Part shown: piece after piece, positions 2,686 through 57,464 of the stretch
Layout of the letters: each line of letters starts with the position of its first letter
Numbering within the stretch: position 1 is the first letter of the stretch
NCBI GenBank assembly: GCA_964467615.1
Contig: CAYXRK010000001.1
Coordinates: forward strand, 14,008-78,007
Direction: 5' to 3'
Length of the DNA stretch: 64,000 nt
From: an uncultured Nitrospirales bacterium
Lineage (GTDB): Bacteria > Hydrogenedentota > Hydrogenedentia > Hydrogenedentales > GCA-2746185
Position numbers and translations under genes: made by a program
Notes under the pieces: model-generated
Databases searched by the model: none
Told to the model about the DNA's origin: nothing
What the model saw: only the letters and a program-made list of their open reading frames with translations

Positions 2686-5600
2686 ATGGCGGGTGCGTCG
2701 CGAAAACGTCGTCGGCTAATTGCTGCGCTAGCGGTGTTCGCGGCACTGGTGCCGCTCTGGCTAGTCGCCGAGCGGTATGTGCTTCGGGTAGATCGGTACC
2801 GGCCCGCGCTCGAAGACGCAATCGCCGGCGCAACCGGGCTGTCCGCCAGCATCGAGAGGATAGAGGCCCACCTCCTCCCCTGGCCGTACGTCGCGCTGGA
2901 AAACGTGACCGTCGGTTCGGGCGATTTTTGGGCGTTCGCGGAACGCATCGATGTTCGCGGAGAGTTGCGGGCCCTCGCGCGGGGGCGGCTCGAAATCGAT
3001 CTGGTGGAGGTGAAGCGGCTTTCGGTCGTGGTGCCGCCCGATCCGGACGACATTCGCGAGCGCGTAAACGTCCTCATCGACCACCTTACGGCCCCGTCAC
3101 AGGAGGAGCCGTGGTTTTCCGAGGTGTCGGTGATCAAGGTCGAGACCGAAGATGCGGGCGTTTATCTTAAGGGAGACGCCGAGCCCGCCGCAGTCATCAC
3201 GGTAACGGGCCGCGATGTTCTTTCGGACGCAGTGCAGACTCTGATCGAGGCGCGGCTGCCCGAATATGGCGCGGACGCACGAGCGTGGACGACGCTTAAC
3301 TTTACCCTCGCGGAGCAAAACGTTTTGGCGGTCTCGGGCGAGGGCTCATTCGAAGGATTGGAGCTCGCCTCGCTGCCGCTGGACGGTCTACCGCAAATTG
3401 TCATGCACGCAGGCTTCACGCTGTCGGGCGAAAACTTCGGGAGCATTGAAGCCGCGCTCACGGGGAACACTGCCTCCGTCGACACCGGACAGATGACCGG
3501 CGAATACGCCGGCGCGCTCTGGTGGAAGGACGAAGCGCTGACGTTGAACGATTTCACGTGGATCGGACCGGACGTCAATACCGCGCTCGACTTGACGCGC
3601 CATAAGGACGGACGCATTGTCGTTTCGGTGAAGCGATTCAGCGCGCGCGCCGGCGGACTAAGCGACATTCTCGCGGGCTTGAAGTTGAAGGACGCCGAAG
3701 TGACCGCGGGCCCGGACGCGTCGTTCGCCGCAACGGACCTGTTGTTCGCCCTGGAATCCGACGACACGATTCAATTCTCCCAGGGCAACGCCGAATTCTC
3801 GGGACTCGCCCTCGCACACGCCGACGAAGGCGAACTCGCGCACGGCGTGAAGGGCCACGTCACGATTACCGATGGGACGATAGCGGTCGAAGAACTCGTC
3901 GCCGAGGGCCTCGCGCTTCACGGCAACGTCACGCCGAACCCCGGCTGGACCACGTTCGCGCTCGATCTGTCCGGCAACGCCGATCTCGCCGCCGCACGCG
4001 TCGTCAGTCTCGTGTTTCCCGATTCGGTGCATGACGCCCAAGGCGTACTAGCGATAGACCGCATCGCGGGGACTTTTGATCGAAACGGCGCGCTTCCCGA
4101 CGATCTTGTCCTCACCGCGACGGTGAACGACGGTGCCTTTCGCGTCGAGTCCGAAGACTTCACTGCGGCTTTCGAAAGCGTGAACGTTCAAGTGCGGACG
4201 GACGGAAAGACCATCGCGACGGCGGCCTCCGCGGCTTCGCCCGAACTGGGCGCGATGCATCTCGACGGCCAGTATTCGGTCGCCGATCGCCTTTGGTCGG
4301 GCGCGACGACAATTGACGTACCGAAGGCCGCGACACACTTCATTGACGACGACGAGGTGTCCGCTCGGTTAGCGGGCCTGCTCGATCAGTATGGGACCGC
4401 CGAGTGGAAGACGGACGTCCAGTTTGCGGCCGAGGACGGGGACCCAATCGAGGTCCGCGTCTCTGGGGAAAATGCTCCTATGCTCAATGGCAAGGTACTC
4501 GTGGCAACCAACGAAGAACACACGCGGTTCGGCGATGTTCACGTCGAGACTGAACTCGCGTCGGACCGGTTGCCTCGCCTGCTTCCCGAGGGCATCCGCG
4601 CCGAGGGGCCCGTGACCGTCCGGTTCGACCGAGACGCCACCGCAGGCGAATTCACGGCGACCGCGAATCTTACCGGATGCACGCTAACGACCGAAGGCGA
4701 CGTTCAGAAGCGGTTCGGTGACGAACTTCTGATCGACCTGTCCGGCCAGGCCACGGAAGGAACGTGGCGCGCCGAGAAGGGCGCCCTGACGTGCCTCGGA
4801 CAACAGTTGGACTTTATTATCGAGGACAAACGGGTCGTCGCGCCGCATTTCGACATCGCCGCCGTGGCATGGGCACGGTTGCTGCCCGAGGGCGCGTCGG
4901 CGCATGGGAGGATTTTCGGGAAGGCGGCGTTCAATCCATTCGAGGCAGACCTGACGTTCCATGATCAGGGATTTCGACTCGATGACGAGATCGTGATCGA
5001 GCGCATCAACGGTAACGTCTCGATCTCCGGTCCGTATTTAACATGCCGCGATCTGAAAATCGAAGGCGCACGTTCGGATTGCACGGTCAATGCAGGCCGC
5101 TCGGACGGCGTCTGGCGTGGCGAAGTCCGCGGCCGGACATTGGATGTGAACGCATTCGCGCCGCTCGCGGGAGCGCTTATTGGACTCGCACAATCCGGCG
5201 GGAGTCCGAAGGACGCCACGGAAAAGAGTGAGGCCGATCCCTTCGTCGGCGACTTCAACATTGCCCTGGATCAAGTGTTCTTCCGTAAGGGACGGCTGGA
5301 CAAATTCACGGCGATGGTAAACGCGCGGGAGCAAGGCGTGTTCGTGAAGGACATCCGCTGCACGCCGTACAGCGGGTCGCTGACCGGCACAATAGATTGG
5401 GTGCCTTCGAACGCGGACGAACACGAAGTGCGCGTCAGTCTCGCCTTTGACGGGGCAGACTCGCGCATCGTCGACGAGATCCTTATGAACGACGAACGAG
5501 GGTTGGACGGAATTTTCTCGGGAACGCTCGACTTCAGTTCGCCCGCTATCGAGGGCAAGGAGTCCGTCAAACGCGCAAACGGCCGCGCAGAGATTCGGGC

Positions 5601-6006
5601 GGCAAACGGTAGTCTGGGAAAAATGGGCTGGGCCACGAAACTCATTTCGGTGTTGAAGACAACGGAAATCCTCGCGTTCCGGAGGCCGGAGTTCCGCGAT
5701 AAAGGGTTGACCTACGACGACTTATCCGGTAGGCTGGAGATGGTGAATGGCGTGCTGACGCTGCGGGACGTGAAGCTCGAAAGCCCCTCCTACTCGATGA
5801 CCGCCAGGGGAACGGTGGATTTCCCGCAAGACCGGTCGGACGTCGTGGTTCGGGTGCAGCCGCTCGAGAATATCAACCGGACCGTCGGTCGAATACCGAT
5901 TATCGGAGATGCGATTCGTCAAGTGACCAAAGTCGCCCGGGTGCGCGTGAATATCACAGGGTCGCCGTACGACACATCGCAGAGCGCGCAGGAAGACAAG
6001 GAATAG
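2686..6006 (+). CDS. AsmA-family / YhdP-like giant envelope protein (1105 aa) with N-terminal membrane anchor
   Basis: N-terminal TM helix followed by an AsmA-like N-domain. The C-terminus (PLENINRTVGRIPIIGDAIRQVTKVARVRVNITGSPYD) resembles the AsmA_2/YhdP C-terminal motif. The stop TAG is immediately followed by the ATG of the next gene. Confidence 0.55.
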   Translation: MAGASRKRRRLIAALAVFAALVPLWLVAERYVLRVDRYRPALEDAIAGATGLSASIERIEAHLLPWPYVALENVTVGSGDFWAFAERIDVRGELRALARGRLEIDLVEVKRLSVVVPPDPDDIRERVNVLIDHLTAPSQEEPWFSEVSVIKVETEDAGVYLKGDAEPAAVITVTGRDVLSDAVQTLIEARLPEYGADARAWTTLNFTLAEQNVLAVSGEGSFEGLELASLPLDGLPQIVMHAGFTLSGENFGSIEAALTGNTASVDTGQMTGEYAGALWWKDEALTLNDFTWIGPDVNTALDLTRHKDGRIVVSVKRFSARAGGLSDILAGLKLKDAEVTAGPDASFAATDLLFALESDDTIQFSQGNAEFSGLALAHADEGELAHGVKGHVTITDGTIAVEELVAEGLALHGNVTPNPGWTTFALDLSGNADLAAARVVSLVFPDSVHDAQGVLAIDRIAGTFDRNGALPDDLVLTATVNDGAFRVESEDFTAAFESVNVQVRTDGKTIATAASAASPELGAMHLDGQYSVADRLWSGATTIDVPKAATHFIDDDEVSARLAGLLDQYGTAEWKTDVQFAAEDGDPIEVRVSGENAPMLNGKVLVATNEEHTRFGDVHVETELASDRLPRLLPEGIRAEGPVTVRFDRDATAGEFTATANLTGCTLTTEGDVQKRFGDELLIDLSGQATEGTWRAEKGALTCLGQQLDFIIEDKRVVAPHFDIAAVAWARLLPEGASAHGRIFGKAAFNPFEADLTFHDQGFRLDDEIVIERINGNVSISGPYLTCRDLKIEGARSDCTVNAGRSDGVWRGEVRGRTLDVNAFAPLAGALIGLAQSGGSPKDATEKSEADPFVGDFNIALDQVFFRKGRLDKFTAMVNAREQGVFVKDIRCTPYSGSLTGTIDWVPSNADEHEVRVSLAFDGADSRIVDEILMNDERGLDGIFSGTLDFSSPAIEGKESVKRANGRAEIRAANGSLGKMGWATKLISVLKTTEILAFRRPEFRDKGLTYDDLSGRLEMVNGVLTLRDVKLESPSYSMTARGTVDFPQDRSDVVVRVQPLENINRTVGRIPIIGDAIRQVTKVARVRVNITGSPYDTSQSAQEDKE

Positions 6007-6945
6007 ATGAGCACAGCGACACTAACGGGCCCTCCCCGGATTCAAATCCAGACGCAGTCGGGCTGCAACGGTCGTTGCGTTTTTTGTCCGAACGAGGCCG
6101 TGCTCAACTCCGACCTGTCCCAGGGGCGCATGCCGCCGGCGCGGTTTCAGCAGATCATCGATGAACTGGCGAAGACGCCCCCTCGGCGCGTGAGTCTGTA
6201 TTTGCAAAACGAACCCATGCTGGACAAGCGGCTGCCAGACTTCTGCCGGTACGTCACCGAGCGCATTCCGTCGGCCTCCACCCTGGTGACGACCAACGGC
6301 ACCTATCTGAGCGAGGCCAGCGCCGCCGCGTTGATCGGCGGGGGGCTCAAACGCATCAAGGTCAGCATTCAATCCCTGGTTCCTGAACGCAACATGGACA
6401 TCATGGGGAAAGTCTGTGATTCGGACAAGGTCGTGAAGAACGTCTTGGGCGTGCGCAAGGTCATGAAGGAAATGCGGGCGAAGGCGTTTGATCTGCGCGT
6501 GTCAACCATCGTCACCGCCATGAACGAAGACGAAATCGGCGATATGCACAGGTTCTGGAAATCGCATGGCGTGAAGATGGTCACGTCCGCGCTCGAGAAC
6601 CGCGGCGGCAACATCGCCAACGCGCTCGAGATGAACGGCGCTGAGATGCGCACGCGAAGCGACTGCATCCGCCCGCACCGCGAGATGTGCGTGCTGTTCA
6701 ACGGCGACGCCGTACTTTGCTGCGTTGACTGGCACCGTGTCGAGGTCGTCGGCAACGTCTTCCAAGACGGCGTAGCGAACGTGTGGAACGGCGCGCGCCT
6801 TCAGCACATCCGCAAGGCGTTCAAAGAGGGCAATACTCAGGCGCTTCCGGAAATCTGCGTCAATTGCACCGAGAGCGCGTGTTCGGCGAAGCAGCGCAAG
6901 GGCTGGCCTTCATTCTTCAGGAACGTTTTCGCGCATGCGGGGTAA
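6007..6945 (+). CDS. radical SAM enzyme with C-terminal SPASM/twitch-like Cys cluster
   Basis: CNGRCVFC (CX3CX2C) at residues 20-27. C-terminal C..C..CC ... CVNCTESAC cysteine cluster. Start codon abuts the AsmA-like stop. Confidence 0.75.
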   Translation: MSTATLTGPPRIQIQTQSGCNGRCVFCPNEAVLNSDLSQGRMPPARFQQIIDELAKTPPRRVSLYLQNEPMLDKRLPDFCRYVTERIPSASTLVTTNGTYLSEASAAALIGGGLKRIKVSIQSLVPERNMDIMGKVCDSDKVVKNVLGVRKVMKEMRAKAFDLRVSTIVTAMNEDEIGDMHRFWKSHGVKMVTSALENRGGNIANALEMNGAEMRTRSDCIRPHREMCVLFNGDAVLCCVDWHRVEVVGNVFQDGVANVWNGARLQHIRKAFKEGNTQALPEICVNCTESACSAKQRKGWPSFFRNVFAHAG

Positions 6946-6999
6946 TCTACTTGGGTACGTTGCGGTAAGTCGTCAATCCGACAAGGAGTATCATCAACT

Positions 7000-7164
7000 A
7001 TGATATCGATTAGTCAATTGCAACGCTTGGCCAACCTTTTCCTGCAACAGGTTGTTGGCCTCGGAGACGACCTCCTGGGCCTGCTCCAGTTTCGTTTCTA
7101 CGAGCTTCTCGGCGAACTGTTTGCCATCATCGCGCCACTCATTGGCTACACGCCCCCGCAATAG
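7000..7164 (+). CDS. small ORF A (54 aa) with AAGGAG Shine-Dalgarno: MISISQLQRLANLFLQQVVGLGDDLLGLLQFRFYELLGELFAIIAPLIGYTPPQ
   Basis: Not in the ORF track (<60 aa). AAGGAG sits 11 nt upstream of the ATG. High GC3. Lies directly downstream of the rSAM/SPASM gene. Paralogous in composition to ORF B. Confidence 0.4.
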   Translation: MISISQLQRLANLFLQQVVGLGDDLLGLLQFRFYELLGELFAIIAPLIGYTPPQ

Positions 7165-7191
7165 ACGTAGGCCGGAAAAGGAGTAGCCACA

Positions 7192-7317
7192 ATGGTTCGC
7201 GACCAAATTTTTGCCGCCATCCAAAGTTTCATCGACGACATTACCGTCTTCATCGCCGATTTTCTGGACACGGTGCTAAACGATCTCCTGCCCAATTTCC
7301 TGCCCTTCGACTTCTAG
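7192..7317 (+). CDS. small ORF B (41 aa) with AAAGGAG Shine-Dalgarno: MVRDQIFAAIQSFIDDITVFIADFLDTVLNDLLPNFLPFDF
   Basis: GGAG 8 nt upstream of the ATG. GC3 about 70%. Acidic/hydrophobic with no Cys. Tandem to ORF A. Confidence 0.4.
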   Translation: MVRDQIFAAIQSFIDDITVFIADFLDTVLNDLLPNFLPFDF

Positions 7318-7443
7318 AAGCTATTCCAAAACCAAGTCCCAATCGGTTCGAGGGTACAGAGTCTTCGAAATCGCCCAGGAATTGGGCCGGAGATATTCTT
7401 CGGTTCGCCGCCGCTCGTCTGATAGTGGTAGGTTACTCGCACG

Positions 7444-8898
7444 ATGAATCGTCGCGCGTTTCTTCAATCCGCCGCCGCGAGCGCCTTCGCCGCCTCGGCC
7501 CTTGGCGCAAAAGGCGCCTGCCGCGCCCCAGCCGGATCGCCTGCGCCGAATTCGGGACCCACCCTTCCGATCATCGACGCGCACTGCCACATCTTCAACG
7601 CCTCCGACCTCGCCATCGAAGGCTTCATCAAACACGCCGTCCTGCATGCCTCGGGCGATCACCCCCTCGACGCCGCCATCGCCGCGCTCGACTTCCAACT
7701 CCAACGCGCGGCACCCTCCTTCGAGGAAGAGAATGCTTTGCTCGACGCGGTGCTTTGCGGAGATCCCATCCCCGAAGAATTTAATCGCACGGGACCATCA
7801 ATCGAAGATATCGACAACTTCCTCGAGCACCTCGCCAAGTCCCGCCCCGATCTGATTCGCGGCGTTGACAAACAGGACGTCCCGCACTTCGGCGAGGGCG
7901 TCCTGTTCAACGCCTTGCGCTGGGCCTGGATTCTCACGCGTCATCGTCTCCACATCATGCAACTCATGTTCAACACCTTCCCCGAAGTCGGGCTTTTCGT
8001 CCCTGCAATCGTCGATATGGACCTCTGGCTTTCGGATCACGCCGAGACATCAATTCCCAATCAAATTCGGCTATACGAAAAACTGATCCGGATTAGCCAA
8101 GGCCGCATCATGCCGCTCGCACCCTTCGATCCCTGGCGGCAAGTCAAAGCCGAACGCGCCGGTACCGATACGCCCCTCGAGTGGATCCAAGACGCCGTAC
8201 TCCACCGCGGTTTTGCCGGCGTAAAACTTTATCCGACGATGGGCTTTCGGGCGGAGGGCAACGCCGAATTGCGGCCCCGGTGGTTCTACCGCCCGCTCGA
8301 TTCCGCGCTCGAAGAACTCTACGAATGGTGCCAACAAGAACGCGTACCCATTTTGGCGCACGCAAACGCTTCGTGGGGATCCGAACGAGGGTTCGAGGAA
8401 CGCGCCGGCCCGGAATACTGGCGGCGCGCACTCGAACGGTTTCCGGAACTCCGAATCAGTTTTGGGCACTTCGGCGGCGACAATGACCTACTGTCACGCG
8501 GGATGGACAGCCGATGTTGGGACTTCGCGAATCTCATGCAAGAGTATCCAAACGCGTTCGCGGACATAGGTTTCCACGACATCGGGTTTCCCTCGACGCG
8601 CGAGTGCGACGTCGAGAAGTACTTCGCCTTGATGCGTGAACTCGCGGCACAATTTCCGGCTGCGATTGACCGCATCATGTACGGCAGCGATTGGCACATG
8701 ATCGTGCAAACATCAGGAAACGACCAATACTTCACGACCACCTTCGAGCGCTTCGCCTCCCACTGGCCCGAAGCCCAGTCCGGCGTCTTTAACGCGAACG
8801 CGCGCCGATGGCTCGATCTCGACGACACGCAATCCACAGCCCGTCAACGACTCGACGCCTTCTACTCCACGCGAGGAATCACACCAAGCTGTACGTAA
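7444..8898 (+). CDS. amidohydrolase-2 (TIM-barrel metal-dependent hydrolase) family protein with Tat signal peptide
   Basis: N-terminal MNRRAFLQSAAASAFAASA (twin-arginine motif). IIDAHCHIF metal-binding motif typical of the amidohydrolase_2 family. Confidence 0.55.
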   Translation: MNRRAFLQSAAASAFAASALGAKGACRAPAGSPAPNSGPTLPIIDAHCHIFNASDLAIEGFIKHAVLHASGDHPLDAAIAALDFQLQRAAPSFEEENALLDAVLCGDPIPEEFNRTGPSIEDIDNFLEHLAKSRPDLIRGVDKQDVPHFGEGVLFNALRWAWILTRHRLHIMQLMFNTFPEVGLFVPAIVDMDLWLSDHAETSIPNQIRLYEKLIRISQGRIMPLAPFDPWRQVKAERAGTDTPLEWIQDAVLHRGFAGVKLYPTMGFRAEGNAELRPRWFYRPLDSALEELYEWCQQERVPILAHANASWGSERGFEERAGPEYWRRALERFPELRISFGHFGGDNDLLSRGMDSRCWDFANLMQEYPNAFADIGFHDIGFPSTRECDVEKYFALMRELAAQFPAAIDRIMYGSDWHMIVQTSGNDQYFTTTFERFASHWPEAQSGVFNANARRWLDLDDTQSTARQRLDAFYSTRGITPSCT

Positions 8899-21600: not shown

Positions 21601-22293
21601 GTGTCTAGCGGGGAGTCTAAGGTCATGGCGGAAGGGTTGGCCGCGCGGCGCACGGCTGGGGGTGCGGTGTTGCGCGTCCTGGAACGGGACCAGCGTCTGT
21701 TCCGGGAATTGAAGGATGAAGATTTGATGCTGGAACACGCGGGCGGGTCGGAACCGGCGTATGAAGAGCTGGTCCGGCGCCACCAGAAGGGCGTGCTCAA
21801 TTATATGTACCGGATGGTGCAGAACCGCCACGTGGCGGAGGAACTGACGCAGGACGTTTTCCTGGCGTTGGTGCGGAACGCGGTGCGGTATCAGCCGACG
21901 GCGAAGTTTACGACGTATTTGTACGCGATTGCCTCGAATATGGTCTCGAAGGAATGGTTGCGCAGGAAGCGTCGCCCGAAGGTGTTCAGCCTTTTCGGCT
22001 GGGCGAAGGAGGGCGACGAACCGGGCTTCAATCCCGTCGAGCATGCGGCGGATGCACGGGCCGATACGTTGGCGGCGTTTCGGCGCGGGGAAGTCTCCGA
22101 GGCGGTGAACGAGGCGTTGCAGCATCTGCCGGAACATCAGCGCGAAGCGTTCGTGTTGCGGCGTTTTGAGGACATGTCGTACGAAGATATCGCGCAAGTG
22201 ACGCAAGTGCCGGTTGGGACGGCGAAATCGCGGGTAGTACGGGCTGAGCGGGCGCTGCGGCCGTTGCTAGAAGCGTTCCGGGAATACGTGTAG
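21601..22293 (+). CDS. ECF (sigma-24-type) RNA polymerase sigma factor
   Basis: Sigma-70 region 2 (YRMVQNRHVAEELTQDVFL) and region 4 (MSYEDIAQVTQVPVGTAKSRV). TATAAT at 21534-21539 upstream. Confidence 0.85.
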   Translation: MSSGESKVMAEGLAARRTAGGAVLRVLERDQRLFRELKDEDLMLEHAGGSEPAYEELVRRHQKGVLNYMYRMVQNRHVAEELTQDVFLALVRNAVRYQPTAKFTTYLYAIASNMVSKEWLRRKRRPKVFSLFGWAKEGDEPGFNPVEHAADARADTLAAFRRGEVSEAVNEALQHLPEHQREAFVLRRFEDMSYEDIAQVTQVPVGTAKSRVVRAERALRPLLEAFREYV

Positions 22294-22299
22294 GCGGGT

Positions 22300-22977
22300 A
22301 TGACAAAAGAACATCCAAGCGAGGCGAGACTGTTTGAGTACGCCGAGGCGCTGCTCGATGGCGGGCCGTTGCCGAAGGCGTTGGGTGGGCACGTTGCGGC
22401 GTGTTCGGTGTGCCGCGCACGCGTCGAGTCGGTCCGTGCGTCGTTGGCCTACGCCGGGAACTCGCGAGAGCTCGAACCTTCGCGCGAGATGACCGCGCGC
22501 ATTCTCTTGACCGCAAGGAACGAGCGGCGCAGGAACGATGCGCGGGCAATGCGGCAGGTAGTATTGCGGCGGGCGTCGAAGGTCGCCGGCGTCGCCGCGT
22601 TTGCGATCGTTGCGACGTTGACGTACCGCTCGGTGATGAGCGCGCCGGCATTGGCACAGGCGCCGGCAATTGTAGAGCAGACCGCGGCAAGCACCGTTGA
22701 CTCAACGGTGTTCGCGGATCGGGTGGCGACGTTAAGCGCTTCGAGCGCGGAGGAGACGGTGCTGAGCGGGGCGGTGATGGCGTCATATTGGCAGCCGCGG
22801 CGGCCTTTGGAAAAGGCGCAGCTTCGCGCGGTAAAGGAACTCGAGGACGATATTTCGGAGGCGCTCGAGGCGGTGCAGGAGAACCCGGGGCTTGCTCGTG
22901 CGGCGAGCGTGGTGTCGAGCGCTCGGCAGCGGCGCGCGGACACGATGAAAGCGTTGTTCGTCGCGAGAAGTCTATAA
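22300..22977 (+). CDS. anti-sigma factor (zinc-finger HxxxCxxC, single TM helix)
   Basis: HVAACSVC motif near the N-terminus. Central TM helix (VAGVAAFAIVATLTY). Directly follows the ECF sigma gene. Confidence 0.7.
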   Translation: MTKEHPSEARLFEYAEALLDGGPLPKALGGHVAACSVCRARVESVRASLAYAGNSRELEPSREMTARILLTARNERRRNDARAMRQVVLRRASKVAGVAAFAIVATLTYRSVMSAPALAQAPAIVEQTAASTVDSTVFADRVATLSASSAEETVLSGAVMASYWQPRRPLEKAQLRAVKELEDDISEALEAVQENPGLARAASVVSSARQRRADTMKALFVARSL

Positions 22978-22984
22978 TCGCTGC

Positions 22985-25009
22985 ATGAGACAACCGTGCG
23001 GGTCGAGGGCCAAGGCGGCGGTCTTGGCCTGTTTTGTTTGTTGGGGGTCGCTTGCGCAAGACGCGCCGCCTGCTGATCCGCCGCCCGTGCCCACGGAAGC
23101 GCCGGCGCAAGAGCCTGCGCCACAGCCTTCGGCTGAAACACCCGCCGCAGTACCGCCGGCGGATATACCGGCGGAAACGCCTGCGCCGGAGGAACTATCG
23201 GCGGCGGCGCCTGCACCAGCGCCGGTGGCGCCACTAGAGTCCCTTCCCTCGCCGGAAGAAACGCCTGCGCCCGCGGCGGTGGATTTCACAGGTCTGCTCA
23301 CGTTTACGCGCACTTGGGAGCAGCAGTTTCCCGCGGCGGAACCACCGCGCATCGACGTGTCCCACAAGCATGGGCCGTTGCTGGTTCGGGTATGGGACCA
23401 GCCGCTCGTGCGCGCCACGGCGACCATGACGGTTGGCGCTCTGGATCAGGCCGTGGCTCAGCAATTCGCTGATGCAATTATCGTTCAAGCCGAGCAGGAG
23501 GGCCCCCGGCTTCTGTTCGTTTCGACCTATCCGAGTGGGGACGGTACGCCCGCAATCGGGGCATACACGATGGAACTGTCGTTGGACGTTCCGAGAGCGT
23601 CGTCGCTGTCGGTGCGAAATGAATTCGGTGACACGAACGTGGTTGGGATAAACGGGCAATTGACGCTCAACTCCGTATTCGGCGCGGTCGAATTGCGCAA
23701 CATTGGCGGTGTAGCGCGGGTGTTTGCGAAGGGCGAGTTCCCGTTCGTGGCGCGCGGACTGTTGCAAGGGGGGACGTTTGTGCTGCGCGGATCCGCCGCA
23801 GTGTTTTCCGAGTACTCGGACGCGCTCGTAGTCCGGAGCACGTCGGGCGCCGTCGAGGTGCGTAACCCTGGGGCTGCGAGCGAGTTGGACGTCACGGCGG
23901 ATTTCTGCCCGGTGCACGTCTACGTGCCCGAGGGCGCAGCGCCGAGCCTGTACTTCGCCGCGCAGGAGGGCGCGATTGAATCCGAAATCGAACTCGAGCG
24001 GGACGCATGGGGCACGAATCTTCTGGCGCGTAAGTTGATCGACACGGCGACGCAGCGCATCACGGTGCATTCGTCGTTTGAAAAGATTTACGTCCATCAG
24101 GAAAGCGCGCAACCTGCCCCCGCGCCCGTGGTCAACGAAAGCGCGCAGAGCGTGCAGGAGCCCATCGGGCCGGTGGAGCTTCCGATCGCGGCGGACGGCG
24201 TGTTGCTGGTGCAGTCCGCCATCGGCGACGTCCGGGTCCAGGCCGGAGACGTTGCCACGGTAACGATTACGGCCGCGAAGCACGCGCGGCTCGGTGACAT
24301 CGCGCAAGCCCCGGCCGCGCTGGCGCTGTTGGGCTTCGAAACGGGCCAGGCCGCGGACGGCGCGCTGACTGTAACGACCAGTGTTGGCGAAGGCATGGCG
24401 CAGTTGACGGCGAGCGACTACCGGATCGATTTGCAGATCGTGTGTCCGCGGACGATAACGGTGCGCCTGAAATGCGAAGAGGGGCACACGAACGTTTCGG
24501 GTACCGCGGGCGCCGTCGTGGTCGAGCAGGGGCGCGGACTCGTCGAGATCACGGACACGAAGGGAAGCCTGGACTTGTCGAGCCGGCTTGGCGACGTTAC
24601 CGTGGTCAATTCGGCTGGCCCCGTCGCCCTACGCGCTACCGCCGGTACGGTTTCACTGCGGGAGGTATTGGCCTCCGCTGAAGTGCGGTGCGCTGCGGGC
24701 ACTATCGTCGTGGACACACCCAGGGCGGGTCTGTTGGCCGCCGCGCAGAAGGGCGACGTGCGCGTGATCGCGGCAGCAGGTATCTTCGGCGATTTCGACA
24801 TCAAGACCGAGGACGGCAGCATAAACGTTCTCGCTCCGGAAGTCCCCAATGCCAACTTTCACTTGAGCACGTACGGCGGCAGCGTGCACAGCCGCCTTCC
24901 GATATCCGGCACCCAGGTCGGGGACGTGCAGTCGTTTCAAACCGAGCCAATCAGCGATGCGCCCCGCGTGTTCCTCGAAGCCAAGCGCGGAAATATCTAC
25001 CTCGACTGA
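22985..25009 (+). CDS. DUF4097 (putative adhesin) domain protein with signal peptide and Pro/Ala-rich linker
   Basis: Repetitive beta-rich C-terminal half typical of DUF4097. Third member of the sigma / anti-sigma / DUF4097 triad. Confidence 0.6.
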   Translation: MRQPCGSRAKAAVLACFVCWGSLAQDAPPADPPPVPTEAPAQEPAPQPSAETPAAVPPADIPAETPAPEELSAAAPAPAPVAPLESLPSPEETPAPAAVDFTGLLTFTRTWEQQFPAAEPPRIDVSHKHGPLLVRVWDQPLVRATATMTVGALDQAVAQQFADAIIVQAEQEGPRLLFVSTYPSGDGTPAIGAYTMELSLDVPRASSLSVRNEFGDTNVVGINGQLTLNSVFGAVELRNIGGVARVFAKGEFPFVARGLLQGGTFVLRGSAAVFSEYSDALVVRSTSGAVEVRNPGAASELDVTADFCPVHVYVPEGAAPSLYFAAQEGAIESEIELERDAWGTNLLARKLIDTATQRITVHSSFEKIYVHQESAQPAPAPVVNESAQSVQEPIGPVELPIAADGVLLVQSAIGDVRVQAGDVATVTITAAKHARLGDIAQAPAALALLGFETGQAADGALTVTTSVGEGMAQLTASDYRIDLQIVCPRTITVRLKCEEGHTNVSGTAGAVVVEQGRGLVEITDTKGSLDLSSRLGDVTVVNSAGPVALRATAGTVSLREVLASAEVRCAAGTIVVDTPRAGLLAAAQKGDVRVIAAAGIFGDFDIKTEDGSINVLAPEVPNANFHLSTYGGSVHSRLPISGTQVGDVQSFQTEPISDAPRVFLEAKRGNIYLD

Positions 25010-25081
25010 CGTAGAATTGGCGTCGTTGTTTGTGTGACGCCCCTCGGTTTGTCGAGCCGATCATTGAAGGGAGCGAGTACG

Positions 25082-25324
25082 ATGCTACACATGGCGCGCC
25101 CGGCCCATCCGGGACAATTCGTGAGGATGGAAGTGATCGGACCGCTCGGCCTCACCGTTACCGAAGCCGCTAAAGTCCTTGGCGTGACGCAGCCCGCGCT
25201 TTCCGCTCTGCTCAACGCGCGCGCGGCGATTTCTCCGGAAATGGCGCTGAGGATAGAACTGGCCTTCGGCCCCCAATGGATACGCTTCTCCGCATGCAGG
25301 CGGCTTACTCGGCGGCGAAAGTAA
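25082..25324 (+). CDS. higA: HigA-family antitoxin (XRE-type HTH), probably frameshifted; the intact reading would extend to about 25410
   Basis: HPGQFVRMEVIGPLGLTVTEAAKVLGVTQPALSALLNARAAISPEMALRIELAFG matches the HigA consensus. The conserved C-terminal FG..xxFWLNLQxAYDL is recovered only in the +1 frame after the C5 run at 25270-25274 (…FGPPMDTLLRMQAAYSAAKV…). No higB partner nearby. Confidence 0.55.
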   Translation: MLHMARPAHPGQFVRMEVIGPLGLTVTEAAKVLGVTQPALSALLNARAAISPEMALRIELAFGPQWIRFSACRRLTRRRK

Positions 25325-25488: not shown

Positions 25489-26064
25489 ATGAGATTGTCG
25501 GCGATGCTTATTGCATTCGTGTTGTTCACCGCGCCGGTAACGTCGTTCGCGCAAGGTGCCCCCATGCCGGAAGAGAACACCGGGCCGAAAGTCGGCGCGA
25601 AGGCGCCGGAGTTCACACTCAAGGACCAGAACGGCGCGGACCGAGTGCTCGCCGACTTCCTCAAGGAAGGCAAGGTCGCGCTGGTGTTCTACCGATCGGC
25701 GGACTGGTGACCGTACTGCAAAAAGCAACTGGTCGAGTTGCAACAACGTTCGGAAGAGTTGAAGGCCGCTGGAATCGTCGTCGTTGGAATAAGCTACGAT
25801 TCGGTCGACGTATTGAAAAAATTCTCGGATGCGAACAAAATTTCGCTTCCACTTTTGTCAGATGAAGGCAGCAAGACGATTGATGCGTTCGGCATCCGTA
25901 ACAAGGAGATGGCCGGGAAGGGCAAGTTCGACGGCATCCCGTATCCGGGCACGTACGTGTTGGACGCAAAAGGCGTCGTGCGGGCGAAGTTGTTCATCGA
26001 GAAGTATCAGGAGCGGCATCCGGTGGACGCGTTAATCGAGGCCGCGAAGACGATAGGCGAATAA
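25489..26064 (+). CDS. BCP/PrxQ-type peroxiredoxin selenoprotein (Sec encoded by in-frame UGA at 25708-25710; UxxC redox motif), secreted
   Basis: ORFs 25489..25710 and 25738..26064 are in the same frame, separated only by TGA. The joined product …VALVFYRSADW-U-PYCKKQLVELQQRSEELKAAGIVVVGISYDSVDVLKKFSDANKISLPLLSDEG… aligns continuously to BCP-type peroxiredoxins, with Sec replacing the Thr of TxxC. SECIS-like hairpin follows. N-terminal signal peptide. GGAGG Shine-Dalgarno. Confidence 0.75.
25725..25741 (+). promoter_or_regulatory. bacterial SECIS-like hairpin (GCAACU-GGUCG-AGUUGC) 14 nt downstream of the UGA
   Basis: Perfect 6-bp stem with apical loop GGUCG. The loop starts 20 nt after the UGA. 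Comparable to the E. coli fdhF minimal SECIS (apical GGUC loop about 18 nt after UGA). Confidence 0.6.
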
Positions 26065-26104
26065 TAGTCCAGCGTTGCTGGTTACAAAACGGGAGGTACG
26101 GGAA

Positions 26105-27451
26105 ATGAACGCAAGTTGGAGAATAGTGGTAGGGCTGGCGGCGTGCGCGCCGTTGGCGTTGGCCGACGCCACGCCCTCGCAGCAGGTAACGTGGGCGAAG
26201 GACGTGATGCCGATCGTCCAGGAGAATTGCCAGGGGTGCCATCGCCCCGGGCAGATCGGGCCATTCTCGCTGATGAGCTTCGACGAGGCGAGGCCTTGGG
26301 CGAAATCAATCAAGCAGAAGGTGTCGGCACGGCAGATGCCGCCGTACTTCGCGGATCCGGCGTCGCTGCCGATGAAGGGCGACTTGAACTTGTCGCAAGG
26401 CGAGATGGACACGTTCGCCGCGTGGGTGGATCAGGGCGCCAAGTTAGGCAACGAAGCGGACCTACCCGCGCCGAGGAAGTTCGAGACCTTCGAGGGCGGC
26501 TGGCAACTGAAAAAGCCGGACGTGGTCATGCAGATGCCCGAACCGTTTGGTGTCGGCGCGGGCCAGGACGATTTGTATCAGTGCTTCAGCGTGCCGTTCG
26601 GACTGGACCAGGACGTATGGCTAAAGGGCGTCGAATTCAAGCCGGACAACACGAAGGTCGTCCACCATTTCATCCTGTTTGAGGACAAGTCTGGCAAGTT
26701 CAAGGAATACGACGCCGAGACACCCGAACCAGGCTGCGAATGCGCCGACATGGAAAAGGTGTTGCAGGGCACGAGCATGATCAAGATGTGGGCCCCTGCG
26801 AACGTGCAGCCGTTTCCGCCGGTTGGCGTGGCGCAGCGCGTCCTGAAGGGCAGCAACCTGATCCTTCAAGTTCACTACCACAACGTCACCGGCGAGGACC
26901 AATCAGACCAATCGAGTTTCGCGTTTCACTTGGCGCAGCCGGGCGAAACGATCATGAAGGAAATCCGGGGCCAGTTGGTCGTGCAGCCGAACTTGAACAT
27001 CAAGGCCGGCGATCCCGCGTCCAAATTTCAGGCGACGTACAAGACGCCGAAGGACATCACGCTATTTTCGTCGGGCGTACACATGCACTACCGCGGCAAG
27101 GACATGGGCATGTGGGCGAAGCGTCCCGGAGATACAGACGAAACGACGATCGTCTGGGTGCCGCGTTACGATTTCAACTGGCAGCTTACGTATGAGTTCA
27201 CGCAGCCGTGGAAAGCGCCCGCGGGGACCGAGTTCACGATGCGGTGCACGTTCGATAACTCAGCGAACAACCCATTCAACCCAGACCCAACGGTGGACGT
27301 GCATTGGGGCCTGTACAGCACGCAGGAGATGGCGTTCTCCGGATATTCGTACACACTTGATGAAGAGGCATTGAACATCACGCCCGTGATGCCTGCGCCC
27401 GAAGTGCTCTCACGATTCTCCGGATCCACGAAGGCCGTATCAGGCGACTAA
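26105..27451 (+). CDS. c-type cytochrome domain fused to a PHM/DBH-like copper type II monooxygenase domain, secreted
   Basis: Signal peptide. CQGCH haem-binding motif. HHFILF (CuH-like) and HMHYRGKDM...M (CuM-like H-x-H ... M) motifs as in the Cu2_monooxygen family. GGGAGG Shine-Dalgarno. 40 nt downstream of the Sec-peroxiredoxin gene. Confidence 0.55.
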   Translation: MNASWRIVVGLAACAPLALADATPSQQVTWAKDVMPIVQENCQGCHRPGQIGPFSLMSFDEARPWAKSIKQKVSARQMPPYFADPASLPMKGDLNLSQGEMDTFAAWVDQGAKLGNEADLPAPRKFETFEGGWQLKKPDVVMQMPEPFGVGAGQDDLYQCFSVPFGLDQDVWLKGVEFKPDNTKVVHHFILFEDKSGKFKEYDAETPEPGCECADMEKVLQGTSMIKMWAPANVQPFPPVGVAQRVLKGSNLILQVHYHNVTGEDQSDQSSFAFHLAQPGETIMKEIRGQLVVQPNLNIKAGDPASKFQATYKTPKDITLFSSGVHMHYRGKDMGMWAKRPGDTDETTIVWVPRYDFNWQLTYEFTQPWKAPAGTEFTMRCTFDNSANNPFNPDPTVDVHWGLYSTQEMAFSGYSYTLDEEALNITPVMPAPEVLSRFSGSTKAVSGD

Positions 27452-27500
27452 ACGCGACAACTTAGGCGATCCAAAGCCCGGCCGAACATGGCCGGGCTTT

Positions 27501-28295
27501 TCATTCTGCGACGAGGATATCGAGCGTTTGGCGATGAAGCGCGGCATTCGCCGACGCGACCACCGTCCCCCCGAGCATCGGTACATCCCCATACAGATCG
27601 GTGACGACGCCGCCGGCGCGTACGATAATTGGGATGAGGGGAATGATGTCGTAGGGTTGGAGCATCGACTCGACGACGAGGTCGACCGTGCCGAGCGCGA
27701 GCAGGCAGTACGAGTAGCAGTCGCCGCCCCAGCGGTGCAGCCGGCAGCGGGTGCTTAGCTCTTCGTAGCGCCGCGCGAATTCAGGATCGATGAACATCGT
27801 GTGGTGCGTGCTGTAGAGCACGGCGTCCGCGAGGGCGGCGTCCGCTCGGCACTGAAGGGGGGTGCGTTCGCTCAGATGATCAAGCCACGCGCCGCCGTGG
27901 TGCGCGGCGAAGGTCTCGCCCGTGAAGGGCTGGTGCATGATGCCGGCGGCGGGCTTGCCGTCGACAACGAGGCCGAGCAAGATCCCCCAGCAGGGCATGC
28001 CGGAGATGAACGCGCGGGTGCCGTCGATGGGATCGATGATCCAATACGTGTCGCCGCCACCGGTGTCGCCGTGTTCTTCGCCGACGATGCGGTGGTCCGG
28101 GAAACGTTGGCCGATGCGTTCGCGAATGAGCGTCTCGATTTCCGTGTCGGCCTTGGTGACGGGATCGTAGAACACGCCGGGGCGCTTGTCCTTCACGTCC
28201 ATCGGTTTTCGGAAGTACCGGAGCGCGATGTCGCCGGCTTCGCGCACGGCGTCGAGCCCCACGGCAAGGCACTGTTCGATTTCGACGTGCGTCAT
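27501..28295 (-). CDS. inositol monophosphatase family protein (IMPase / HisN-like)
   Basis: WIIDPIDGT and GGDCYSY signature motifs. The true start MTHVEIEQ is used; the ORF-track N-extension is Arg-rich and spurious. Confidence 0.8.
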   Translation of the reverse strand: MTHVEIEQCLAVGLDAVREAGDIALRYFRKPMDVKDKRPGVFYDPVTKADTEIETLIRERIGQRFPDHRIVGEEHGDTGGGDTYWIIDPIDGTRAFISGMPCWGILLGLVVDGKPAAGIMHQPFTGETFAAHHGGAWLDHLSERTPLQCRADAALADAVLYSTHHTMFIDPEFARRYEELSTRCRLHRWGGDCYSYCLLALGTVDLVVESMLQPYDIIPLIPIIVRAGGVVTDLYGDVPMLGGTVVASANAALHRQTLDILVAE

Positions 28296-43702: not shown

Positions 43703-45091
43703 TCAGATGTGGACTTCGATCCGGTGGCCGTCCACGTCGTTCTTTGGTTCCGTATCGCGCGGCCGCGACGGCCACAGCGGCGCGACCATTTGCGATTCCC
43801 ATTCGGCGTACAACTTCTTCAGTTGTTCGACGACCTCGGGGCGTTCCGCGGCGAGGTTTTTTGTCTCGCCGACGTCGTCGCCCAATTCGTAGAGCGCGGT
43901 GAAGTCTTGATCGAAGAACAACTTCAGATTGCCCTTGCGCATGGCCTTGTTGGGACCATTGCGCCAGAACAAGGTTTCGTGCGGCGCTTCGTCCTTTTGA
44001 CCGGTCAGGTAGGGCAAAAGATTCGTGCCGTCGATCGTGCGATCGCTCGGCACTTCGGCGCCGGTGATGGCGGCGATAGTCGGGAATAGGTCCATCGACA
44101 CGACCGGCTGGTCGTACCGCAGCCCGCTCGGCAACTTTCCCGGCCACTGTACGGCGAAGGGAATCCGCACGCCGCCTTCAAACAGGTATGTCTTGCCCAG
44201 GCGCAACGGGCGATTGTCACACACGTTGGCGTACAGCGCGCAGCCGTTGTCGCTGAGAAACGCCACCAGCGTACGCTCGCGAAGCCCGGTCTGCTCGAGT
44301 GCGCGAAGGATTCGCCCCACGCCGTCGTCGAGCGCGCTAATCATGGCGACGTAGCGGCGGCGGGCCGGGTCGTCAATGTTCGGAAACCGTTCGAGATAGT
44401 TGTCGGAGACCTCATGCGGCGTGTGCGGCGCGTTGTAGGGAACGTAGAGAAAGAACGGCTTCTCCTTGTTCCGTTCGATGAACGACACGGCCTCGCGCGT
44501 GAACGCATCGGTGAGATACTCGGGTTCGGCCACCGCCTTGCCGTTGCGCTCGATGGGGGTCCGATCGGCGGGATCGAACGTATCCGGTGGATTGAAGTAT
44601 TTATGTCCGCCGAAACGGAAGCCGAAGAACTCATCGAACCCGCGCTTGTTCGGGCCAAAGCGTTCTTGCAAACCGAGATGCCACTTGCCGACGATCCCCG
44701 TCGCGTAGCCGGCTTTCTTCAGCACGTCCGCGAGCGTTATTTCCGAGGGCGGCAGACCGAATTCGCCCTTGATCGAGCGCTGCAACGGTCCGGCGTTGAA
44801 CTCAAACCCGTAGCGCTGTTGGTAGCGGCCGGTCATCAACGCGGCCCGCGAAGGGCTGCATGTGCCGGCGGTGACGTAGCCCTGCGGAAAGAGAACGCCA
44901 TTCTCCGCGATCGAGTTGATGTTCGGCGTGGGAATGTCCTGGCAGTCGTAGAGACCCGTGTCGCAGTAGCCCAGGTCGTCAGCGAGAATAATGACGACGT
45001 TTGGCCGCTCCTGCGCGCTAGCTATGGGGTGCAGGACCGCCCACGTCAACGCGGCCGCGAGTAAGCGCCATGCCATGCCATTGTTCGCCAT
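43703..45091 (-). CDS. Cys-type arylsulfatase (formylglycine-dependent), secreted
   Basis: CSPSRAALMTGRY FGly motif. Signal peptide MANNGMAWRLLAAALTWAVLHPIASA. Confidence 0.85.
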   Translation of the reverse strand: MANNGMAWRLLAAALTWAVLHPIASAQERPNVVIILADDLGYCDTGLYDCQDIPTPNINSIAENGVLFPQGYVTAGTCSPSRAALMTGRYQQRYGFEFNAGPLQRSIKGEFGLPPSEITLADVLKKAGYATGIVGKWHLGLQERFGPNKRGFDEFFGFRFGGHKYFNPPDTFDPADRTPIERNGKAVAEPEYLTDAFTREAVSFIERNKEKPFFLYVPYNAPHTPHEVSDNYLERFPNIDDPARRRYVAMISALDDGVGRILRALEQTGLRERTLVAFLSDNGCALYANVCDNRPLRLGKTYLFEGGVRIPFAVQWPGKLPSGLRYDQPVVSMDLFPTIAAITGAEVPSDRTIDGTNLLPYLTGQKDEAPHETLFWRNGPNKAMRKGNLKLFFDQDFTALYELGDDVGETKNLAAERPEVVEQLKKLYAEWESQMVAPLWPSRPRDTEPKNDVDGHRIEVHI

Positions 45092-45251
45092 AAGAATTCT
45101 CCCAGCTTGTTTCACCAATTCAACTTCGTCCCTGATGGTTCCATCGGTACCGGCCCGGAACATAGATTACAGTGCGAACCGCAAACTCCGTTAACACCAT
45201 TCGTCCCAGCATCGTACGAGGGGGATCCAAATCCTTAGCGTTATCGAAGTC

Positions 45252-51519: not shown

Positions 51520-52116
51520 TTACGTCGCCGAAGCGTCGAGCAATGGATCGACCGTCATGACCAACTCTTCGAGCGTTACTTCTCCGAGCCAGGACGTTAT
51601 AAGTTTGCCCGCTTTGTCGAAAAGAAACGTCTCGGGCAACGCGCCGCTCACTTCCGCCCCCACCGCCGCGCTGAGTTGGTCGGGCATGACGCCTTCCATG
51701 ACGAGCACGTTGTATAGGACGTCGTATTTGTCGATAAAAGGGACCACTTTGTCCGCCAGCGTCGCGGGGTCATCGGCCGAAATGCTGACGAACCGTACGC
51801 CCCTGTCCTTGTATTCGCTGTAGAAGGTGTTGAGGGCCGGCGTTTCCTTTACGCACGGCGGGCACCACGTCGCCCAGAAATTAACAACGGCGACACCCCC
51901 GGCCTTGGCGTCCTTAATCGTCTTAGCGATCAGTTCCGCGTTAGCGATGCTGGCGCCGCCCTTCGGCGCGACCGCGATAGCTAGAGCCGGAGCGGCAACC
52001 GACATCGCTCCATTTGTCGGTCCCGACTCCGCGGGTCCGCTGCATCCGTAGCCGAAGAAGGTGACTAGAAGAGCGGCGGCGCGGACGGTTCCGCGCCGCG
52101 AGTTAATAAGGTTCAT
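51520..52116 (-). CDS. TlpA/ResA-like thiol:disulfide oxidoreductase (WCPPC), lipoprotein
   Basis: FWATWCPPC thioredoxin motif. Signal peptide with a Cys near the cleavage site. Confidence 0.8.
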   Translation of the reverse strand: MNLINSRRGTVRAAALLVTFFGYGCSGPAESGPTNGAMSVAAPALAIAVAPKGGASIANAELIAKTIKDAKAGGVAVVNFWATWCPPCVKETPALNTFYSEYKDRGVRFVSISADDPATLADKVVPFIDKYDVLYNVLVMEGVMPDQLSAAVGAEVSGALPETFLFDKAGKLITSWLGEVTLEELVMTVDPLLDASAT

Positions 52117-52147
52117 CTCTTAGGTCCGTCTTGTCGGCGGCAGCGAG

Positions 52148-52756
52148 CTATTTCGAGGCCCGCTTGATCGTGCAGCCCCAGGCGCTCACTTCGGGTGTCG
52201 AAACCGCTTTGCCTCCAAGCAGATTGTCGATTGCCGCCGCCGCATAGGGTGTGTCGCCGTCTTTCTCGGGCACCGTGCGGTTGTCGAACGCGCCGTGAAA
52301 CGCGAGCTTGCCTTCCGCGTCAACGATGTAAAACTCCGGCGTGCGCGAAGCGCCCACCGCGTCCGCGAAAGTGTTGTTTACGTCCTTGAGAATCGGGTAT
52401 TCGAACCCGCCCTTCTCGACGTACGCGGAGACATCTTCGACGGAGTTTCCAGCGTCCGAATCCACTCCGAAAATTAGCGCCTTGCCGCCGTAGGCGTCCG
52501 CCAACTTGTCGATTCCGGGGTCCGCGCCGCGCGACCAGGGGCAATTTTTCGACACGAACGCCAGCGCCACCACCTTGCCCTTATAGTCGCTGAGCTTGTG
52601 CGTCTTGCCTGTCAGGTCCTTCATGTCGAAGTCCGGCATCGATTCACCAATAGCGGGCGCCTTGCCCGCGTAGGCCGGGGAGCCGTACATCAACGCCACG
52701 GCGAAGGCCACCATCGCCGCCAATACCACACCAACAATCGCCTTTTTCATACGCAC
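52148..52756 (-). CDS. redoxin/thioredoxin-fold family protein (single-Cys KNCPWS), secreted
   Basis: Signal peptide. Thioredoxin-like fold pattern with one active-site Cys. Confidence 0.6.
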   Translation of the reverse strand: MRMKKAIVGVVLAAMVAFAVALMYGSPAYAGKAPAIGESMPDFDMKDLTGKTHKLSDYKGKVVALAFVSKNCPWSRGADPGIDKLADAYGGKALIFGVDSDAGNSVEDVSAYVEKGGFEYPILKDVNNTFADAVGASRTPEFYIVDAEGKLAFHGAFDNRTVPEKDGDTPYAAAAIDNLLGGKAVSTPEVSAWGCTIKRASK

Positions 52757-57403: not shown

Positions 57404-57464
57404 GCGCCGCGCGTGAATGCAGGGGCGCGAATGTCTTGCATCGGCCAGTAACGGGGATCCGGAT

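Follow-up and report, generated by a model that had tools for sequence, protein, structure and literature searches.

A cytochrome c fused to a PHM-like copper monooxygenase in an uncultured Hydrogenedentota bacterium

The enzyme gene and its features

We analysed a stretch of 64,000 nt (the window) from an uncultured bacterium of the GTDB lineage Hydrogenedentota (contig CAYXRK010000001.1, positions 14,008 to 78,007 of the forward strand). The subject of this work is a + strand gene whose 448-aa product carries a monohaem c-type cytochrome domain in front of two domains similar to those of peptidylglycine α-hydroxylating monooxygenase (PHM) and dopamine β-monooxygenase (DBM). The first-pass annotation, made by a model from the sequence, had described a secreted protein combining a CQGCH haem motif with the copper-site motifs HH...HxH...M. 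These motifs are present; Pfam, profile and Foldseek searches lead to PHM, and the ligand residues are kept in 229-230 of 230 family members. We refer to the product as the enzyme. The features of its gene are as follows (positions in the window).

26105..27451, + strand: gene for the cytochrome c / PHM-like copper monooxygenase, 448 aa (open reading frame, ORF; Pfam; identical protein on record, P0001; AlphaFold2 model)
26091..26096, + strand: Shine-Dalgarno sequence GGGAGG, 8 nt 5′ of the ATG (read from the sequence)
26105..26164, + strand: Sec-type signal peptide, aa 1-20, with predicted cleavage between ALA and DA (direct reading of the sequence)
26183..26479, + strand: monohaem c-type cytochrome domain, aa ~27-125, predicted built-in entry point for electrons
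26228..26242, + strand: haem-attachment motif C42-Q-G-C45-H46, invariant in 230/230 homologues
26336..26338, + strand: M78 in an invariant M-P-P motif, probable sixth (distal) haem ligand, invariant in 230/230
26522..26908, + strand: β-sandwich like the PHM N-domain, aa ~140-268, with the CuH site (PHM alignment; Pfam Cu2_monooxygen over aa 170-263)
26663..26668 and 26873..26875, + strand: CuH ligands H187-H188 and H257, aligned to PHM H107/H108/H172, invariant in 230/230
26915..27364, + strand: β-sandwich like the PHM C-domain, aa ~271-420, with the CuM site (PHM alignment; Pfam Cu2_monoox_C above cut-off)
27080..27088 and 27329..27331, + strand: CuM ligands H326-M-H328 and M409, aligned to PHM H242/H244/M314 (H326 and H328 in 230/230, M409 in 229/230)

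The reading frame starts at ATG 26105 and ends with TAA 27449-27451 (448 codons). A longer alternative beginning at TTG 26075 has no comparable ribosome-binding support and seems less likely. By eye, the N-terminus, MNASWR-IVVGLAACAPLALA followed after the predicted cleavage point by DA, reads as a Sec signal peptide; residues 1-19 have a predicted local distance difference test score (pLDDT) <50 in the AlphaFold2 model. Covalent attachment of haem c needs export to the periplasm. Two of the copper ligands sit in readily recognizable motifs, H257 within LQVHYHN and M409 within STQEMAF.

Fold, ligand conservation and family

A family profile was required to reach PHM, because a PDB search with the enzyme sequence alone gave just a weak cytochrome c match. 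The profile matched rat PHM structures with E 8e-14, spanning both domains and pairing all six ligand columns: VVHHF with TVHHM (H107/H108), LQVHY with LQVHY (H172), HMHYRGK with HTHHLGK (H242/H244) and EMA with EMC (M314). The AlphaFold2 model, built from the homologue alignment, is confident (pLDDT 87.3, predicted template modelling score 0.83). When it was compared with the PDB by Foldseek, PHM entries came out on top (E 4e-16) and human dopamine β-hydroxylase next. The enzyme has two consecutive β-sandwich domains with the PHM fold, the arrangement that defines the class of PHM, DBM and tyramine β-monooxygenase. At the level of Pfam, Cu2_monoox_C scored 25.5 bits against a cut-off of 23 in the enzyme. 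Among 31 homologues (38-70% identity), matches with E≤0.01 were obtained to Cytochrome_CBB3 in 28/31, to Cu2_monooxygen in 26/31 and to Cu2_monoox_C in 16/31.

When 230 family proteins were aligned with MAFFT, 229-230 of them, down to ~35% identity, had identical residues at CxxCH, M78 and all six copper-ligand positions, and these columns are also invariant in 49 further, more distant long forms. Such invariance argues for selection on a working haem and a two-copper site. C42, C45, H46 and M78, the CxxCH motif and the probable distal ligand by which a monohaem cytochrome is recognized, are present in all 230. Residues invariant in a family-specific manner surround the CuM domain (F357-x-W359-Q360, D384-N385-S386 and E408). 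Two cysteines, C160 (26582-26584) and C213 (26741-26743), occur together in 106/110 unfused members and are both absent from the subfamily with a fused N-terminal domain described below; they probably form one subfamily-specific disulfide.

PHM and DBM are textbook animal enzymes, acting in the synthesis of peptide hormones and noradrenaline, with ascorbate as the external one-electron donor. A comparative-genomics review of metalloproteomes lists both among eukaryote-specific copper proteins (PMC7435645). The enzyme is bacterial, ~21% identical to the catalytic core of rat PHM (PDB 1PHM/1SDW), and differs from it by the cytochrome domain with covalent haem in front. The PHM residues that anchor the peptide carboxylate, R240, N316 and Y318, correspond to G324, F411 and G413 in the enzyme; across the family R240 is replaced by G/M/S/A, N316 by F/I, and the position of Y318 holds G/F/W/Y (G/F/W in the unfused group). 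Since these anchors are missing, the substrate should not be peptidyl-glycine, i.e. a glycine-extended peptide. In PHM systems the PAL lyase completes amidation, whereas the enzyme has no further domain within its 448 aa and no lyase gene is found among its window neighbours. The five disulfides of PHM are reduced to at most one, the co-varying pair C160/C213. Judging from sequence comparison, the metal site probably works like that of PHM/DBM and the enzyme is not a peptidylglycine monooxygenase.

Dopamine β-hydroxylase, tyramine β-monooxygenase and MOXD1 (PDB 4ZEL) carry a DOMON β-sandwich N-terminally, in place of which the enzyme has a helical haem c domain; it also lacks their C-terminal dimerization domain and is a bacterial periplasmic protein. 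In Geobacter sulfurreducens the monohaem c-type cytochrome PccH (PDB 4RLR) carries electrons as a protein on its own, while the cytochrome domain of the enzyme is fused to an oxygenase. The logic of a cytochrome feeding single electrons to an extracytoplasmic copper oxygenase may be shared with the cytochrome of cellobiose dehydrogenase, which feeds lytic polysaccharide monooxygenases (LPMOs), and with the proposed route from methanol dehydrogenase/cytochrome cL to particulate methane monooxygenase. This would be a functional analogy, not homology: LPMO and methane monooxygenase are unrelated to the enzyme both in fold and in copper site (a histidine brace or CuB/CuC, not CuH/CuM), and the enzyme unites cytochrome and oxygenase in one polypeptide.

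The family is large. Among 1.84 billion cluster representatives (50% identity), HMMER found 15,402 matches with E≤1e-3, 8667 with E≤1e-10 and 2374 with E≤1e-30. A word-index search of a protein database found >4389 close relatives, and a scan of GTDB representatives (one genome per species) found >600 loci with a family gene. The arrangement, which had been called unusual, is thus common. The best 80 of the >600 loci belong mostly to Acidobacteriota (Blastocatellia, Terriglobia, Bryobacteraceae and Thermoanaerobaculia) and also to Planctomycetota, Hydrogenedentota and Armatimonadota. The identical protein P0001 comes from an NCBI assembly; a partial copy (P0022) is labelled Candidatus Hydrogenedentota. 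In their source records the proteins bear unspecific labels: ‘c-type cytochrome’, ‘hypothetical protein’, ‘thiol-disulfide isomerase’ or ‘redoxin domain-containing protein’. Foldseek and profile searches found no bacterial family member in the PDB. In full-text literature, with most subscription journals outside the coverage, we found no description of copper monooxygenases from bacteria that are PHM-like or fused to a cytochrome, and a model is also lacking in NCBIfam. ‘Uncharacterized’, the other epithet of the first-pass annotation, thus appears to hold. The fusion of cytochrome c with a PHM-like module appears widespread in nature, yet uncharacterized.

Several architectures occur beside the basic one. 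Tandem arrays of two to at least four cytochrome c-PHM-like paralogues were observed in Acidobacteriota (loci L003, L005, L007, L008 at 2927-8799, L013, L015, L023, L025, L026, L034, L036, L041, L049 and L078), which suggests diversification over substrates. In Bryobacteraceae/Terriglobia an open frame of ~245-270 codons between stops lies directly 3′ of the enzyme gene; it has the N-terminal haem c domain (CxxCH, RPWA, MPPW) and a short β domain without any copper His ligand (L011 7277-8023, L017 7172-7909, L037 2932-3690, L052 7269-8027, L057 7157-7885, L061 7169-7969 and L078 7122-7934). This haem-only ORF may be a dedicated cytochrome partner. Proteins P0220 and P0230 (761-767 aa) combine ankyrin repeats, redoxin, cytochrome c and PHM-like parts. 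Doubled modules of 1064-1251 aa also exist (P0361, P0362), and C-terminal tetratricopeptide repeats (TPR) were seen in 8/49 long forms.

The upstream gene and the genomic context

A second gene precedes that of the enzyme on the same strand, and a hairpin follows the enzyme gene.

25489..26064, + strand: gene for an exported AhpC/TSA-fold thiol/selenol redox protein, 191 aa, active site ADW-U-P-Y-C (Pfam; homologues with ADW-C-P-[FY]-C)
25708..25710, + strand: in-frame TGA, probably read as selenocysteine, at the first Cys position of the family CxxC (sequence; homologue alignment)
25725..25741, + strand: small hairpin GCAAC-UGGUCGA-GUUGC, 5 bp, its first base 17 nt 3′ of the U of the UGA (inverted-repeat scan); possible bacterial selenocysteine insertion sequence, weakly supported
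27473..27500, no strand assigned: G+C-rich hairpin AAAGCCCGGCC-gaacat-GGCCGGGCTTT, then a T-rich run (read from the sequence)

With U read as C, the upstream protein matched Pfam AhpC-TSA (121 bits) and Redoxin (75.7 bits), the match spanning the TGA. Its homologues are exported proteins of ~190 aa with the motif ADW-C-P-[FY]-C, and 102/120 of them have W-C-x-x-C at the TGA position. A relative 97% identical, P0242, is on record only as a 108-aa fragment beginning just after the TGA codon; a gene caller would be expected to produce such a fragment if the gene of P0242 has the TGA as well. Folding of the RNA at 25705-25770 was not better than that of shuffled sequences (z 0.39), and neither a tRNA-Sec nor a sel gene was found within the 64-kb window. 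Taken together, the upstream gene likely encodes a selenoprotein. The first-pass annotation had called it a selenocysteine peroxiredoxin, of which the first half is likely right, the TGA standing at the family Cys, and the second half is not established. The site reads F-Y-R-S-A-D-W-U-P-Y-C, a thioredoxin-type CxxC with Ala at -3, where the peroxiredoxin pattern P-x-x-x-[TS]-x-x-C has the peroxidatic Thr/Ser. All NCBIfam peroxiredoxin equivalogs scored below cut-off (best, 79.9 bits vs 140). Elsewhere in the window, at 51523-52756 on the - strand, two side-by-side thioredoxin-fold ORFs are 22-26% identical to the upstream protein.

The stop codon of the upstream gene at 26062-26064 leaves a 40-nt gap to the enzyme ATG, the distance given by the first-pass annotation. 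No terminator-like site was found on the + strand in this gap (26064-26105) by the terminator scan, and a hairpin lies directly 3′ of the enzyme gene; we therefore take the two genes, upstream gene first and enzyme gene second, for a probable operon. The hairpin at 27473..27500 is a probable terminator common to the enzyme gene and a convergent gene of the inositol-monophosphatase family; it was not among the four sites of the consensus terminator scan. The Rfam scan found no known RNA element; a weak match at 27470-27501 was to the CC0196 small RNA model, of whose 58 positions it spans the 3′-terminal 29-58. The promoter scan found no promoter-like site 5′ of the upstream gene. The only σ70-like consensus match near the enzyme gene, at 25813-25841 (+), falls inside the coding region of the upstream gene, ~265 nt 5′ of the enzyme ATG; it may have arisen by chance or mark an internal promoter, and is not evidence of function. 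Window neighbours of the enzyme are, besides the upstream gene and the inositol-monophosphatase-family gene, genes for a helix-turn-helix (HTH) protein and an FGGY kinase. Just 5′ of the putative operon (21601-25324, +) are an apparent extracytoplasmic function σ factor, identified from translation (21601-22293), a possible anti-σ factor (22300-22977), a 674-aa DUF4097 ‘toastrack’ protein (22985-25009) and a small HTH_3 protein (25034-25324).

Thioredoxin-fold proteins are associated with the family in three independent kinds of arrangement. The gene with U-x-x-C in the window is one. The second is a TlpA-like protein with the motif WATWCVPCR encoded directly upstream of the enzyme gene in two 70%-identical relatives (L081 and L115). 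The third is N-terminal fusion. Single ORFs composed of signal peptide, AhpC/TSA domain, CxxCH and PHM-like module were found in Armatimonas (L046) and in Planctomycetota (L053, L064 and L065), and this fused form of ~600 aa is represented by at least 120 database clusters (90% identity). Among the best 150 cluster representatives (50% identity), 35, or ~23%, have an N-terminal extension of ~170-250 aa; 49 scanned long forms, which include those 35, gave an AhpC-TSA match in 36 cases. In the Planctomycetota proteins annotated as ‘redoxin domain-containing protein’ or ‘peroxiredoxin/mono/diheme cytochrome c family protein’ (e.g. P0121, 625 aa), the cytochrome c and PHM-like module is the same, with identical ligand columns; the AhpC/TSA-fold unit is added and the C160/C213 pair is missing. 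The fused domains have one conserved Cys, in [E/D]-C-P rather than CxxC, and no conserved Thr/Ser at -3, whereas the U-x-x-C protein of the window is encoded by a gene of its own, belongs to another AhpC/TSA subfamily and shares only 28% identity with the fused domain. As the fusion characterizes a large sister subfamily, many lineages have a thiol/selenol redox partner as part of this system. The redox module of peroxiredoxin and oxygenase proposed in the first-pass annotation is accordingly borne out as far as a thiol-redox link goes, the link being real in view of the TlpA-like neighbours and the AhpC/TSA fusions; the particular upstream gene is not a conserved partner (see below). Candidate roles for such a partner are maturation or protection of the haem/copper enzyme, peroxide handling, or a part in the reaction itself.

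We took a Pfam census of the immediate same-strand neighbours of family genes (90 upstream and 89 downstream ORFs). The commonest upstream neighbours were pyrroloquinoline quinone (PQQ) dehydrogenases (8/90), which are plausible electron sources via cytochromes. Sulfatases made up 4/89 downstream ORFs, and paralogues of the enzyme were seen in 23 and 27 cases.

Relatives 57-70% identical to the enzyme have a sulfatase-family gene directly 3′ of the enzyme gene in L081 (7475-8881), L094 (~1287-2594), L118 (1676-4123) and L093 (~6514-7662). A sulfatase is one gene away in L115 (4129-5559) and L117 (5592-7001), and an 80-aa remnant is present in L116 (5373-5612). A gene for a Cys-type sulfatase is also directly downstream in the more distant L028 (7306-8715). 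The Cys-type motif CxPxR is present in L081, L094, L028, L115 and L117 and absent from L118 and L093. A TauD gene lies upstream of the enzyme gene in L081, L116 and L117. The sulfatase and TauD counts are not independent, because synteny is common to L115/L117 and to L081/L116/L117. The window itself has two sulfatase-family genes, one at 43703-45163 (-) of Cys type (CSPSR) and one at 57417-58928 (+) without CxPxR, 16 and 30 kb from the enzyme gene. The idea that Ser-type sulfatases might hint at a new formylglycine route is unsupported, the adjacent sulfatases being Cys-type or motif-less. We treat the sulfatase context as a lead on the substrate, not as a conclusion.

Proposed function and alternatives

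The reading we favour, and consider reasonably probable, is that the enzyme is a periplasmic, Sec-exported, three-domain copper monooxygenase of PHM/DBM type, fed by its cytochrome, with haem c as the entry point for electrons, and probably co-transcribed with the gene of the AhpC/TSA-fold selenoprotein. In the proposed mechanism haem c would accept electrons one at a time from a donor in the periplasm, such as a soluble cytochrome or quinoprotein dehydrogenase, and pass them to CuH (H187, H188 and H257) in place of the ascorbate of the animal enzymes, ascorbate being an unlikely reductant in these bacteria. CuH would then reduce CuM (H326, H328 and M409), where O2 would be activated and a C-H bond of the bound substrate hydroxylated. 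Hydroxylation with electron flow from CuH to CuM is established for animal PHM/DBM. What seems new here, from the sequence data, is a bacterial copper monooxygenase of the PHM/DBM type that differs in its substrate site and has its cytochrome c donor built in.

Several results weigh against this reading. In the enzyme itself Cu2_monooxygen (22.5 bits vs cut-off 30) and Cytochrome_CBB3 (18.2 bits vs 27) remain below threshold, and the NCBIfam scan found no matching model. The Pfam check proposed in the first-pass annotation thus gave a mixed outcome, with Cu2_monoox_C passing, the other two failing in the enzyme and all three models matched among the 31 homologues (16-28/31). The neighbour census is heterogeneous, with no dominant partner family, and since the neighbourhood varies across the family no substrate can be deduced from context. 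Conservation of the pairing with the upstream gene, the second check proposed, failed: tblastn of the upstream protein found an orthologue adjoining the enzyme gene in none of ~110 related loci, and a conserved orthologous pair is therefore rejected. Against the 80 loci this search gave five weak matches, four of them to domains fused to the enzyme; in ten loci from close relatives it found nothing. The closest full-length Cys homologue of the upstream protein, P0245 (64% identity), has no cytochrome c-PHM neighbour. Finally, the same ligand set could in principle run an oxidase or peroxidase reaction instead of monooxygenation. As a separate observation, in the P0245 locus (L119; 965-2857 and 4001-4576) two CsrA genes lie in the 1.1 kb that separates a DsbD gene from the gene of the Cys homologue 3′ of it, an arrangement that fits a periplasmic thiol protein reduced by DsbD.

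One alternative, the module of the first-pass annotation taken at its word, is peroxide or oxygen detoxification, in which the haem/copper protein would be a cytochrome c-dependent peroxidase/oxidase or an H2O2 peroxygenase. Peroxide would be scavenged or supplied by the AhpC/TSA partner, without hydroxylation of any organic substrate. Among copper monooxygenases, LPMOs can leak or use H2O2 and members of this family may do so as well; the recurrent adjacency and fusion to AhpC/TSA-fold domains agree with the idea. We nevertheless hold it to be unlikely. The partner in the window has the thioredoxin-type W-U-P-Y-C without the peroxiredoxin Thr and stays below all NCBIfam peroxiredoxin cut-offs; the fused domains, with their single Cys in [E/D]-C-P, likewise have no conserved Thr/Ser at -3, and most family members are without any thioredoxin-fold neighbour. 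Moreover, the full His2Met set at CuM and the PHM-like two-domain cleft are of the substrate-hydroxylating type. Paralogous ORFs with the haem domain and without copper ligands exist beside some family genes, so that a haem domain can act as a carrier by itself, and this gives some room to a non-catalytic protein that transfers electrons or handles copper and retains no more than the fold of PHM. This is very improbable, given complete CuH/CuM sets, catalytic Met included, in 229-230 of 230 proteins and the conservation of W359, Q360, D384-N385-S386 and E408, which is the pattern of an active site and not of a relic.

Other alternatives concern what is modified. PHM, the closest structural relative, acts on peptides, and some long members carry protein-binding TPR (8/49, C-terminal) or ankyrin repeats, so one may think of PHM-like α-hydroxylation/amidation, or side-chain hydroxylation, of exported peptides or proteins, with the thioredoxin-fold partner handling substrate Cys. 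The replacement of the R240 and N316 anchors (G/M/S/A and F/I), with G/F/W for Y318 in the unfused group, speaks against this, as does the absence of any PAL-like lyase, precursor-peptide or gene of the type found with ribosomally synthesized and post-translationally modified peptides adjacent to the enzyme gene in the window; no such family was among the 25 commonest in either neighbour scan. We regard peptide modification as quite remote. A function linked to organosulfur compounds or sulfatases in the clade of the window would be compatible with the copper-monooxygenase mechanism and is about substrate identity: the enzyme might act by hydroxylation at the carbon that carries a sulfonate or sulfate ester (oxygenolytic desulfation like that of TauD/AtsK) or modify a sulfatase, e.g. 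by forming formylglycine in the periplasm. The recurrence of sulfatase-family and TauD genes beside relatives 57-70% identical (L081, L094, L115-L118 and L093; also L028) speaks for it. Yet the immediate neighbours in the window are not sulfatases, those of the window being far off; the syntenic loci are not independent, the family-wide share of sulfatases is low and the adjacent ones are Cys-type. Cys-type sulfatases already have a known maturation enzyme, the formylglycine-generating enzyme. On balance this function is doubtful.

The copper-monooxygenase reading can be extended to a large family of ascorbate-independent PHM-type enzymes wired via the fused haem c to periplasmic carriers and acting together with a thiol/selenol partner, the substrate in the clade of the window lying in sulfate-ester/sulfonate metabolism or sulfatase maturation. 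The extended proposal is speculative and, taken as a whole, improbable. If true, it would amount to a new periplasmic route that depends on oxygen, and would offer a natural system whose haem lets one trigger and watch the entry of electrons into CuH/CuM.

For the enzymology of this class, a bacterial family of thousands that keeps the full CuH/CuM site, with ascorbate apparently exchanged for a covalent cytochrome, would widen the range of PHM/DBM chemistry. In PHM the gap between CuH and CuM is ~11 Å, and how electrons cross it remains debated; a built-in, optically visible haem donor would give enzymologists a direct handle on CuH-to-CuM electron transfer. The AhpC/TSA fusions and the pairing with a likely selenoprotein suggest a coupling of thiol/selenol chemistry to copper oxygenases that is as yet unexplored. 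In Acidobacteriota, Planctomycetota and Hydrogenedentota, where family members abound, most of the oxidative metabolism of the periplasm lacks annotation, and the family may represent an unassigned oxygenase function in soils and waters.

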